From NCBI RefSeq assembly GCF_054482525.1, contig NZ_CM137006.1: 64,000 bases of DNA; one strand, written 5' to 3'. The notes beneath the pieces are model-generated. The model worked only from the letters and a program-made list of their open reading frames with translations. It was not told the DNA's origin and did no database searches. Below are positions 1-26,434 of the stretch, piece by piece (positions within the stretch are counted from its first letter, which is position 1; every line of letters begins with the position of its first letter). Both the position numbers and the translations under genes were made by a program.

Positions 1-464
1 GGGTAGACCTGATCACCGCGCCAGCCCGCAAAGTGGTGGAGATCCGCAAAACCACCATCGGCTGGGTGAGCCAGTTTCTGCGCGTCATCCCGCGTATTTC
101 GGCACTGGAAGTGGTGATGCAGCCTCTGCTCGATACCGGCGTACCGCGTGAAGCCTGCGCCGCTAAAGCCGCGCGTCTGCTCACCCGCCTGAACGTGCCT
201 GAACGCCTGTGGCACCTGGCACCATCGACCTTCTCCGGCGGCGAACAGCAGCGCGTCAACATCGCCCGTGGCTTTATCGTCGACTATCCGATTCTGCTGC
301 TCGACGAACCTACCGCCTCGCTGGACGCTAAAAACAGCGCCGCCGTAGTGGAACTGATCCGCGAAGCCAAAGCCCGCGGCGCGGCCATCGTCGGTATCTT
401 CCATGACGAAGCCGTACGCAATGACGTCGCCGACCGCCTGCACCCGATGGGAGCCTCTTCATGA
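1..464 (+). CDS. phnL: Phosphonate C-P lyase system ATP-binding protein PhnL, 3' part (5' end lies outside window)
   Basis: Open frame from window edge; ABC signature LSGGEQQR and Walker B LLLDEP; stop overlaps phnM start (ATGA); synteny with phnMNOP. Confidence 0.85.
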
Positions 465-1597
465 TTATCAATAACGTCAAACTGGTGCTGGAAAATGAAG
501 TGGTGCACGGTTCACTGGAAGTACAGGATGGCGAAATTCGGGCCTTTGCCGAAAGCCAGAGCCGCCAGCCGGAAGCGATGGACGGCGAAGGTGGCTGGCT
601 ACTGCCCGGACTGATTGAGCTGCATACCGACAACCTCGATAAATTCTTCACCCCGCGCCCGAAAGTCGACTGGCCCGCCCATTCGGCGATGAGCAGCCAC
701 GACGCGCTGATGGTGGCAAGCGGCATCACCACCGTACTGGACGCCGTGGCGATTGGTGATGTGCGCGACGGCGGCGATCGGCTGGAGAATCTGGAGAAGA
801 TGATCAACGCCATCGAAGAGACGCAGAAACGCGGCGTCAACCGCGCCGAGCACCGCCTGCACCTGCGCTGCGAACTGCCGCACCACACCACGTTGCCGCT
901 GTTTGAAAAACTGGTGCAGCGCGAACCGGTGACGCTGGTATCGCTGATGGACCACTCGCCAGGCCAGCGCCAGTTCGCCAATCGCGAGAAGTATCGCGAA
1001 TATTATCAGGGCAAATATTCCCTCACCGATGCGCAGATGCAGCAGTACGAAGAAGAGCAATTGGCGCTCGCCGCACGCTGGTCGCAGCCAAATCGCGAAA
1101 CCATCGCCGCAATGTGCCGCGCGCGACACATTGCCCTCGCCAGCCACGATGACGCCACGCACGCCCACGTTGCCGAATCTCACCAGCTTGGCAGCGTGAT
1201 CGCCGAATTTCCCACCACGTTCGAAGCGGCAGAAGCCTCGCGCAAGCATGGCATGAACGTGCTGATGGGCGCGCCGAATATCGTGCGCGGCGGTTCGCAC
1301 TCCGGCAACGTGGCGGCCAGTGAACTGGCGCAGCTTGGCCTGCTGGATATCCTCTCTTCCGACTACTACCCCGCCAGCCTGCTCGATGCGGCATTTCGCG
1401 TCGCCGATGACGAGAGCAACCGCTTTACGCTGCCGCAGGCGGTGAAGCTGGTGACTAAAAATCCGGCGCAGGCGCTTAATCTTCAGGATCGCGGAGTGAT
1501 TGGCGAGGGCAAACGCGCCGACCTGGTGCTGGCGCATCGCAAGGGCAACCACATTCATATCGACCACGTCTGGCGTCAGGGTAAAAGGGTGTTCTGA
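461..1597 (+). CDS. phnM: PhnM, amidohydrolase-family C-P lyase pathway enzyme
   Basis: 378-aa ORF, length and operon position match PhnM; translationally coupled to phnL and phnN. Confidence 0.9.
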
Positions 1598-2154
1598 TGA
1601 CGGGAAAACTGATTTGGTTAATGGGGGCCTCTGGCTCCGGAAAAGACAGTCTGTTGACGGAACTTCGCCAGCGGGAACAAACTCAGCTACTGGTAGCGCA
1701 TCGCTACATCACGCGCGCCGCCAGCGCCGGAAGTGAAAACCATATCGCCCTGAGCGAGCAGGAGTTTTTTACCCGCGCGGGGCAGAACCTTCTGGCCTTA
1801 AGCTGGCACGCTAACGGTCTGTATTATGGCGTCGGCGTCGAGATTGACCTCTGGCTGCACGCCGGATTCGACGTGCTGGTCAACGGCTCACGCGCGCATT
1901 TGCCGCAGGCGCGGGCGCGCTATCAATCGGCGCTGCTGCCCATTTGCTTACAGGTTTCGCCGGAGATCCTGCGCCAGCGCCTGGAAAACCGTGGTCGTGA
2001 AAACGCCAGTGAAATTAACGCCCGGCTGGCGCGCGCCGCCCGCTATACTCCTCAGGATTGCCATACGCTCAATAATGACGGCAGCCTGCGCCAGTCGGTC
2101 GACACGCTGCTGACGCTGATTCATCAGAAGGAGAAACACCATGCCTGCTTGTGA
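1597..2154 (+). CDS. phnN: PhnN, ribose 1,5-bisphosphate phosphokinase
   Basis: 185-aa ORF with P-loop GASGSGKDS; operon position. Confidence 0.9.
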
Positions 2155-2575
2155 GCTTCGCCCGGCCACGCAGTACGATACCGACGCAGTGTACGCGCTG
2201 ATTTGTGAGCTAAAACAGGCGGAGTTTGACCACCACGCGTTTCGCGTGGGCTTTAACGCCAACCTGCGCGACCCGAACATGCGCTACCATCTGGCGCTGC
2301 TGGATGGCGAAGTTGTCGGCATGATCGGCCTGCATTTGCAGTTTCATCTGCATCATGTCAACTGGATCGGCGAAATTCAGGAACTGGTGGTGATGCCGCA
2401 GGCGCGCGGTCTGAATGTCGGCAGTAAATTACTGGCATGGGCAGAAGAAGAAGCCCGCCAGGCCGGGGCCGAAATGACCGAGCTTTCCACCAACGTGAAG
2501 CGCCACGACGCGCACCGTTTCTATCTGCGCGAAGGCTACGAGCAGAGCCACTTCCGCTTCACCAAGGCGCTGTAA
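2141..2575 (+). CDS. phnO: PhnO, GNAT-family aminoalkylphosphonate N-acetyltransferase
   Basis: 144-aa ORF, overlaps phnN end; operon position. Confidence 0.88.
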
Positions 2576-2576
2576 C

Positions 2577-23934: not shown

Positions 23935-25893
23935 ATGAGTCAAATTCACAAACACACCATTCCTGCCAACATCGCAGACCGTTGCCTGATAAACCCTCAG
24001 CAGTACGAGGCGATGTATCAACAATCTATTAACGCACCAGATACCTTCTGGGGCGAACAGGGAAAAATTCTCGACTGGATCAAACCTTACCAGAAGGTGA
24101 AAAACACCTCCTTTGCCCCCGGTAATGTGTCCATTAAATGGTACGAGGACGGCACGCTGAATCTGGCGGCAAACTGCCTTGACCGCCATCTGCAAGAAAA
24201 CGGCGATCGTACCGCCATCATCTGGGAAGGCGACGACGCCAGCCAGAGCAAACATATCAGCTATAAAGAGCTGCACCGCGACGTCTGCCGCTTCGCCAAT
24301 ACCCTGCTCGAGCTGGGCATTAAAAAAGGTGATGTGGTGGCGATTTATATGCCGATGGTGCCGGAAGCCGCGGTCGCGATGCTGGCCTGCGCCCGCATTG
24401 GCGCGGTGCATTCGGTAATTTTCGGCGGCTTCTCGCCGGAAGCCGTTGCCGGGCGCATTATCGATTCTAACTCACGGTTGGTGATCACTTCCGACGAAGG
24501 CGTGCGCGCCGGGCGTAGTATTCCGCTGAAGAAAAACGTTGATGACGCGCTGAAAAACCCGAACGTCACCAGCGTAGAGCATGTGGTGGTACTGAAGCGT
24601 ACTGGCGGAAAAATCGACTGGCAGGAAGGGCGCGACCTCTGGTGGCACGACCTGGTTGAGCAAGCCAGCGATCAGCACCAGGCGGAAGAGATGAACGCCG
24701 AAGATCCGCTGTTTATTCTCTACACCTCTGGTTCTACCGGGAAGCCGAAAGGCGTGCTGCACACTACCGGCGGTTATCTGGTGTACGCGGCGCTGACCTT
24801 TAAATATGTCTTTGATTATCATCCGGGTGATATCTACTGGTGCACCGCCGATGTGGGCTGGGTTACCGGACACAGTTATTTGCTGTACGGCCCGCTGGCC
24901 TGCGGCGCGACCACGCTGATGTTTGAAGGCGTACCGAACTGGCCGACGCCTGCCCGTATGGCGCAGGTGGTGGACAAGCATCAGGTCAATATTCTCTATA
25001 CCGCGCCCACGGCGATTCGCGCGCTGATGGCGGAAGGCGATAAAGCGATTGAAGGCACCGACCGTTCGTCACTGCGCATTCTCGGTTCCGTGGGCGAGCC
25101 AATTAACCCGGAAGCGTGGGAGTGGTACTGGAAAAAAATCGGCAATGAGAAATGCCCGGTGGTCGACACCTGGTGGCAGACCGAAACTGGCGGTTTCATG
25201 ATCACGCCGCTGCCTGGCGCTACCGAGCTAAAAGCCGGTTCGGCAACACGTCCGTTCTTCGGCGTGCAACCGGCGCTGGTCGATAACGAAGGTAACCCGC
25301 TGGAAGGCGCTACCGAAGGCAGCCTGGTGATTATTGACTCCTGGCCGGGTCAGGCGCGTACGCTGTTTGGCGATCACGAACGTTTTGAACAGACCTACTT
25401 CTCCACCTTCAAAAATATGTATTTCAGCGGCGACGGCGCGCGTCGTGATGAAGATGGCTATTACTGGATCACCGGGCGTGTGGACGACGTGCTGAACGTC
25501 TCCGGTCACCGTCTGGGAACGGCAGAGATTGAGTCGGCGCTGGTGGCCCATCCGAAGATTGCCGAAGCCGCTGTCGTCGGTATTCCGCACAATATTAAAG
25601 GTCAGGCGATCTACGCCTACGTCACGCTTAATCATGGGGAGGAACCGTCACCAGAACTGTACGCAGAAGTCCGCAACTGGGTGCGTAAAGAGATTGGCCC
25701 GCTGGCGACGCCAGACGTGCTGCACTGGACCGACTCCCTGCCTAAAACCCGCTCTGGCAAAATTATGCGCCGTATTCTGCGCAAAATTGCGGCGGGCGAT
25801 ACCAGCAACCTGGGCGATACCTCGACGCTTGCCGATCCTGGCGTAGTCGAGAAGCTGCTTGAAGAGAAGCAGGCTATCGCGATGCCATCGTAA
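23935..25893 (+). CDS. acs: Acetyl-CoA synthetase
   Basis: 652-aa [37 protein letters not shown]-binding motif [11 protein letters not shown]. Confidence 0.95.
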
Positions 25894-25902
25894 CCCACAA
25901 TT

Positions 25903-25937
25903 GCCGGATGCGGCGTATAACGCCTTATCCGGTCTAC
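25903..25937. repeat. REP element
   Basis: TGCCGGATGCGGCGTATAACGCCTTATCCGGTCTAC just downstream of acs stop. Confidence 0.75.
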
Positions 25938-26119
25938 ACGCCCCTTTCTTTATAGTGGGAAAGGGCAAATATAAAAATTCCCCTAAGTATTTCGCGTTGC
26001 AGGAAGGAAGCAAGCGAGCATCTCCCCAGGAGCATAGAAAACTATGTGACTGGGGAAGGCGAGTGCGGCTGACGAACCTGCGGCGTGAAAGACGACGGGG
26101 AACCTCTGGAGAATCTGTG

Positions 26120-26434
26120 ATGAATGGCACTATTTATCAGCGGATAGAAGACAATGCGCATTTCAGGGAGTTAGTCGAAAAACGGCAACGGTTTGCCACC
26201 ATCCTGTCGATTATTATGCTGGCAGTTTATATCGGCTTTATTTTACTGATCGCCTTCGCGCCCGGCTGGCTGGGCACCCCGCTGAATCCGAACACCAGCG
26301 TCACACGCGGTATTCCGATTGGTGTTGGAGTAATTGTGATCTCCTTTGTTCTCACTGGTATCTACATCTGGCGGGCGAACGGCGAATTCGACCGTCTTAA
26401 TAATGAAGTCCTGCATGAGGTACAAGCATCATGA
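26120..26434 (+). CDS. yjcH: YjcH, small DUF485 inner-membrane protein co-transcribed with acs and actP
   Basis: 104-aa protein [21 protein letters not shown] with two TM segments; stop overlaps actP start. Confidence 0.8.

Follow-up and report, generated by a model that had tools for sequence, protein, structure and literature searches.

Ten overlapping stop/start junctions in the phn, mdtNOP, nrf and acs-yjcH-actP operons of an Escherichia coli chromosome segment and their probable translational coupling

In the classical pairs of translationally coupled genes, trpE/trpD, trpB/trpA and galT/galK, the two reading frames either overlap briefly or have their stop and start codons in close apposition within an operon, and direct genetic evidence for their coupling came from polar nonsense mutations. 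Here, we describe ten junctions in the phn, mdt, nrf and acs operons of a 64,000-nucleotide (nt) stretch of DNA (NCBI RefSeq assembly GCF_054482525.1, contig NZ_CM137006.1; the whole stretch is referred to as the window), at which the stop codon of one gene overlaps the start codon of the next. Across all prokaryotes, gene spacings of -4, -1 and -8 nt are enriched (Brown and Wade 2025, PMC12548453), and termination-reinitiation was found to couple four of five native E. coli pairs joined by an ATGA (Huber et al. 2019, PMC6728339). When the Shine-Dalgarno (SD) sequence was removed from these four pairs, reinitiation fell by 60-90% or ceased altogether (Huber et al. 2019, PMC6728339). The pairs of that study (hyfH/I, astD/B, ydbH/ynbE and menD/H) resemble those in the window, as they likewise meet at an ATGA or TGATG, carry the SD inside the upstream open reading frame (ORF) and in several cases encode subunits of one complex. 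They differ in that their coupling was measured, whereas the pairs in the window are known from sequence alone and include overlaps of -8 and -14 nt that lie outside that study. The operons of E. coli K-12 MG1655 (phn, b4092-b4106; mdtNOP, b4080-b4082; nrfABCDEFG, b4070-b4076; acs-yjcH-actP, b4067-b4069) are identical to those of the window in gene order, gene lengths and all ten junction geometries.

The window is a segment of an E. coli chromosome. BLAST searches of complete E. coli genomes, together with a direct alignment, show that it is colinear, in reverse orientation, with positions 4.247-4.317 Mb of K-12 MG1655, running from phnL to malK, and that the two are about 97% identical overall (~95-99% across aligned blocks). 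Among the 36 co-directional adjacent gene pairs of the whole window, ten overlap, and these are exactly the pairs listed in an earlier note on this DNA; all ten overlaps can be read directly from the sequence. Six have a spacing of -4, two of -1, one of -8 and one of -14. The note had described them as ATGA or longer, which is correct for eight junctions but not for phnM/phnN and mdtN/mdtO, where the overlap is 1 nt only; the letters ATGA are present at both, but the TGA within them is not the upstream stop codon. All ten pairs have every sequence feature of overlapping co-directional genes of the -4/-1/-8 class, with the nrfG start being the least secure. We consider it very probable that they are unexceptional junctions within operons, with the spacings that are most common in bacteria, and that they are coupled by termination-reinitiation. 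Coupling is a functional claim that goes beyond what the letters display, and we infer it here from the junctions and from the behavior of comparable pairs.

The operons that hold the junctions, phnCDEFGHIJKLMNOP, (ytcA-)mdtNOP, nrfABCDEFG and acs-yjcH-actP, have long been known in E. coli. On the plus strand, phnL ends and phnM begins in a 4-nt ATGA at 461-464 (TTCATGATTA), preceded by the SD GGGAG (-6.5 kcal/mol), phnM and phnN share the single base 1597 of a TGATG at 1595-1599 (SD AAGGG, -5.5 kcal/mol), and phnN and phnO overlap by 14 nt at 2141-2154 (ATGCCTGCTTGTGA) behind a strong SD, AAGGAG (-8.8 kcal/mol). The stop codon of mdtN and the start of mdtO share base 8758 of a TAATG at 8756-8760 (SD -1.9 kcal/mol), while 4-nt ATGA overlaps join mdtO to mdtP at 10806-10809 (SD AAGGAG, -7.7 kcal/mol) and yjcH to actP at 26431-26434 (SD GAGGT, -6.9 kcal/mol). 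The nrf junctions lie on the minus strand. There, 4-nt ATGA overlaps connect nrfB to nrfC at 21498-21495 (SD TAAGGAG, -8.4 kcal/mol), nrfC to nrfD at 20830-20827 (SD GGGGAGGTGA, -12.3 kcal/mol) and nrfF to nrfG at 17763-17760 (SD TAAGGG, -5.9 kcal/mol), and nrfE and nrfF overlap by 8 nt at 18143-18136 (ATGAATAA; SD GGGGGAGGAAG, -11.3 kcal/mol). The remaining junctions of the same operons are short gaps, namely phnO/phnP (+1), ytcA/mdtN (+18), nrfA/nrfB (+44) and acs/yjcH (+226). Nine of the ten overlapping starts are thus preceded at normal spacing by an SD within the upstream ORF, with predicted anti-SD pairing energies of -5.5 to -12.3 kcal/mol. The mean hybridization energy at the ten starts is -7.5 kcal/mol, as compared to -5.7 kcal/mol at 29 starts of the window that are free of overlap and -2.0 kcal/mol at random positions.

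Curation and homology show that the overlapping codons are the real starts of their genes. Every curated K-12 coding sequence (CDS) of the 4.247-4.317 Mb interval was extracted and mapped onto the window. In the region of the overlaps these CDSs map end to end without gaps, with their start and stop codons kept and without internal stops, apart from fdhF (which contains a known in-frame TGA), mdtP (a 33-nt insertion) and rpiB (truncated), and gene-level DNA identity to the K-12 operon genes is 94-99%. The curated K-12 boundaries reproduce the same ten overlaps base for base, and the independent annotation of strain AW1.7 by the Prokaryotic Genome Annotation Pipeline (PGAP) has the same ten junctions, so no curated start departs from the overlapping ones. 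All of the overlap partners are full-length orthologues of K-12 proteins, and 14 of them match NCBIfam equivalog profiles. All ten downstream proteins are among these, and they align from about profile position 1 at residues 1-5, as seen for PhnM (NF011981, 1-378 of 378), PhnO (NF007530, 1-144 of 144), MdtO (NF008510, 1-683 of 683) and ActP (TIGR02711, 1-549 of 549); residues 3-184 of PhnN match positions 2-185 of the 186 in NF007485, and MdtP matches NF007390. NrfG is the exception, as its match to the 206-position profile NF007692 does not begin until position 9. The NCBIfam search returned no match for YjcH, whose identity is based on 98.7% DNA identity to K-12 yjcH. At nine of the ten starts there is no upstream in-frame start before a stop codon is reached, and the nearest downstream in-frame alternative lies 8-37 codons into the gene for nine genes (16 codons for phnO, which has no upstream candidate), with none within 150 nt for nrfF. 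The start of nrfG is the least certain of the ten because an in-frame GTG is located 22 codons upstream and its profile match begins at position 9. The earlier note's view that the overlaps support the chosen gene boundaries, and are otherwise expected and unremarkable for these operons, therefore agrees with the K-12 and AW1.7 annotations, with the NCBIfam N-termini and with the identical junction geometries in K-12.

Conservation of the nrf junctions was assessed in 80 species-representative loci around NrfD homologues, in which NrfD identity ranges from 97% down to ~49% and which span the genera Escherichia, Citrobacter, Salmonella, Pectobacterium, Providencia, Serratia and Yersinia to Aeromonas. 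Loci were scored by whether an in-frame start overlaps the stop codon. A procedure that picked the start nearest to aligned residue 1 was set aside, as it gave noisy nrfE/nrfF and nrfF/nrfG spacings in Citrobacter and Salmonella, where the conserved ATGNNTAA overlap is actually present. The nrfB/nrfC ATGA is found in 78 of 79 loci, from Escherichia to Aeromonas, and the nrfC/nrfD ATGA in 70 of 80 (with a -1 overlap in 3 others and a -8 overlap in 1). At nrfE/nrfF, 43 of 70 loci have the 8-nt overlap in the form ATGNNTAA or ATGNNTAG, the two middle bases being variable, and at nrfF/nrfG a spacing of -4 is shared by 39 of 70 loci, with 8 others having -1. The yjcH/actP junction was scored on the 21 nrf loci that extend to acs-yjcH-actP; 20 of these syntenic Escherichia, Citrobacter and Salmonella loci carry the ATGA, and the remaining one, from Intestinirhabdus, has a -1 overlap (TGATG) and has kept the SD GAGGT. 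The overlaps at nrfB/nrfC, nrfC/nrfD and yjcH/actP are therefore strongly conserved across genera, while the comparison of the phn and mdt junctions covers three E. coli genomes.

Two features of the nrfE-nrfF region were seen in other genera. In many of the loci that depart from the 8-nt overlap, nrfE and nrfF are separated by ~500-590 nt (L062, L066, L071-L077, L079 and L081-L083 in our set, from Yersinia, Pragia, Leminorella and Aeromonas); presumably an extra gene has been inserted there, and the E. coli-type overlap is therefore absent from those lineages. In Citrobacter and Salmonella arizonae, a palindromic element similar to repetitive extragenic palindromic (REP) sequences directly follows the nrfE/nrfF ATGNNTAA within the open nrfF frame (L009, 8686-8790; L020, 8679-8740; L012, 8836-8915), and it lengthens the N-terminus of the predicted NrfF (154-170 residues, as compared to 127). 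Either the element is translated within the signal peptide region of NrfF, or the nrfF start of these species lies downstream of it.

The one nrf junction absent from the earlier note's list, nrfD/nrfE, also deserves attention. The curated K-12 start of nrfE, a GTG, maps to 19794 on the minus strand and leaves a gap of 79 nt after nrfD, whereas PGAP places the start at a CTG at 19854, 20 codons earlier, which is 19 nt past the nrfD stop codon and lies behind AGAGGTGG. The K-12 start omits 20 conserved N-terminal residues (DVFLPEVGFLALLLSLGVN; the junction region spans 19794-19876 on the minus strand), and the longer NrfE matches positions 1-573 of the 573 in NF007691. Across genera, the aligned nrfE start is a CTG, TTG, GTG or ATG, usually 1-38 nt past nrfD, with larger gaps in about a dozen loci. 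Translation of nrfE probably begins at the CTG upstream of the curated K-12 start, so that nrfD/nrfE is probably a tight junction too, and Escherichia and Citrobacter probably use a rare start codon for this gene.

How coupling would operate at the ten junctions can be outlined from these features. A ribosome terminating at the upstream stop codon would already sit on or beside the downstream start, and it would re-initiate there with the aid of the internal SD, so that output of the downstream protein would be tied to translation of the upstream gene. De novo initiation at the same SDs probably contributes as well. Such an arrangement would suit pairs whose products build one machine, a rationale that fits NrfC-NrfD, NrfE-F-G and MdtN-O-P and may extend to YjcH-ActP. 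Subunits of heteromeric complexes are often encoded by overlapping gene pairs (PMC10666635). For the last of these pairs there is regulatory information, as acs-yjcH-actP are co-transcribed, yjcH-actP is repressed by pairing of the small RNAs OmrA/B at the initiation region of yjcH, and YjcH may be needed for ActP activity (bioRxiv 10.64898/2026.06.26.734639). Repression of both genes from a site at yjcH is consistent with coupling, although it is no demonstration of it.

Several observations weigh against coupling at all ten junctions. The SD of mdtO is the weakest of the set, and at -1.9 kcal/mol it is no better than the mean at random positions. Predicted RNA structure gives no indication of masking: the mean unpaired probability between -15 and +5 is 0.51 at the overlapping starts and 0.47 at 29 independent starts (p = 0.38), and z-scores of predicted folding in 100-nt windows (-70 to +30) center on 0, with no excess of stability over shuffled sequences. 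These predictions thus contain no sign of start-masking hairpins, which would have rendered coupling obligatory. A model in which upstream translation melts a hairpin that covers the downstream start was accordingly set aside as unsupported by the predicted folding of these short windows, and an Rfam scan of positions 1-30000 returned the fdhF selenocysteine insertion (SECIS) element and no match at any junction. Furthermore, the bioB/bioF ATGA pair of E. coli initiates de novo and is uncoupled (Huber et al. 2019, PMC6728339), so an overlap is no guarantee of coupling. PhnM, PhnN and PhnO are separate enzymes and not partners in a complex, and the argument from stoichiometry does not hold for them. 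Finally, we found no experiment on any of the ten pairs in the literature on phn, nrf, mdtNOP and yjcH-actP. The INRI-seq supplement (PMC9825163) has no entries for nrfC, nrfD, phnM, phnO or mdtP and contains only two weak out-of-frame signals near actP; one of these, at an ATG at K-12 position 4284917 (~26415 in the window), is located 16 nt upstream of the actP start within the end of yjcH (GCATGAGG). This supplement offers no usable evidence either for or against the annotated starts.

The most serious competitor of termination-reinitiation accepts the gene boundaries but holds that the downstream genes are translated essentially independently, by de novo loading at the internal SDs, and that the overlaps are a by-product of genome compaction and of the ease with which a TGA stop arises from an ATG that adjoins an A. 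This account, to which we assign a minor share of the probability for any given pair, draws on the good SDs that nine of the ten starts have of their own, on the lack of a predicted masking structure, on the independent translation of bioB/bioF in E. coli (PMC6728339) and on the proposal of Brown and Wade (PMC12548453) that the abundance of -4 spacings stems partly from how readily they evolve. However, coupling was measured in 4 of the 5 E. coli ATGA pairs tested, and the nrfB/nrfC ATGA has been kept in 78 of 79 genomes at NrfD identities as low as 55%. The overlap of mdtO with mdtN lacks a usable SD, and this fits reinitiation better than de novo loading. Termination-reinitiation consequently remains the reading that we prefer, with independent loading as a probable contributor.

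Objections to the overlaps themselves carry much less weight. Some of the starts could be annotation artefacts, the true start being a nearby in-frame codon that gives no overlap or a longer one. The in-frame GTG 22 codons upstream of nrfG, together with a NCBIfam profile that has 8 extra N-terminal positions, gives this idea some footing, as does the apparently misplaced K-12 start of nrfE, which indicates that curated starts in the same operon are fallible. Nevertheless, we regard it as very improbable, since there is no upstream in-frame start in eight of the nine genes besides nrfG, downstream candidates lie 8-37 codons in (none within 150 nt for nrfF), the profiles align from residues 1-5, K-12 and PGAP agree on the overlapping starts, and the overlapping ATG is conserved across genera. 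A purely coincidental meeting of ATG and stop triplets is more improbable still. Motifs that could form an overlap do arise where none is used, as NTGA and xxATG each occur at 5 of the 46 stop codons without a downstream gene. Of the 10 upstream partners, on the other hand, 6 have an ATGA at the stop codon, a feature that is seen in 0 of the remaining 46 genes of the window (Fisher p = 6e-6), and TGA serves as the stop codon in 8 of the 10, as compared to 8 of the 46 (p = 3e-4). The overlaps exceed chance because of this enrichment and because a full-length conserved protein begins at each overlapping ATG; with the junctions also being kept across genera, the explanation by chance is effectively refuted.

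Away from the junctions, the window differs from K-12 in lacking alsRBACEK and the 5' part of rpiB, in carrying an IS1 element and in an 11-codon duplication in mdtP. The als operon is missing entirely, and together with the lost part of rpiB the absent DNA amounts to about 6.7 kb in K-12. A complete IS1 of 768 bp at 4227-4994 (context 3892-5238), with insA/insB on the minus strand and a flanking 9-bp direct repeat (TGTGCTCAG), separates what remains of the truncated rpiB from yjcS. The same als deletion occurs without the IS1 in strain AW1.7, and this, together with the intact target duplication, suggests that IS1 was acquired by a simple insertion later than the deletion. The exact IS1/als-deletion arrangement was found in only 1 of 5,426 E. 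coli genomes (match across 80% or more of the query). Within mdtP (10806-12305), a 33-nt unit is duplicated in tandem and in frame at ~11463-11528, so that AHQSKVAHGLE appears twice, and MdtP is 499 residues long here as compared to 488 in K-12. The in-frame TGA of fdhF (12503-14650) at 12923-12925 lies within an Rfam SECIS_2 element (12915-12969, 87 bits) and is known to encode selenocysteine in formate dehydrogenase H, which is why the gene appears as two in the ORF list. Other differences are confined to spacers and to levels of identity. The acs-yjcH spacer (25913-26101) has no detectable similarity to that of K-12. A REP-like palindrome (GCCGGATGCGGCGTATAACGCCTTATCCGG) occurs in this divergent spacer, which adjoins the region upstream of yjcH that OmrA/B target. 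In the yjcO-gltP spacer (15434-15511), a 524-bp segment that K-12 has between gltP and yjcO is missing. The phn genes (phnL-phnP, 1-3335) are 93.8-96.6% identical to K-12 at the DNA level, below most of the window (97-99%), and yjbL (50762-50980), which has a 31-nt gap, reaches an identity of only 84%.

The architecture of these junctions is already known, as the operons, genes and junctions are those of K-12 and the arrangement is textbook, so the importance of the finding is small. It confirms that this part of the window has reliable gene boundaries and that its junctions harbor nothing out of the ordinary; its by-products are the cross-genus conservation of the nrfB/nrfC, nrfC/nrfD and yjcH/actP overlaps, a nrfD/nrfE junction that is probably much tighter than annotated in K-12 and the strain differences relative to K-12. 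Taken jointly, the observations allow a more specific and rather tentative suggestion, which we hold to be somewhat less probable than its converse: the conserved yjcH/actP ATGA may be the sole route by which OmrA/B regulation at yjcH reaches the acetate permease ActP, and the nrf and mdt overlaps may enforce an obligatory fixed-ratio synthesis of subunits. If true, this route and the fixed-ratio synthesis would be a specific instance of a known principle and not a new mechanism.

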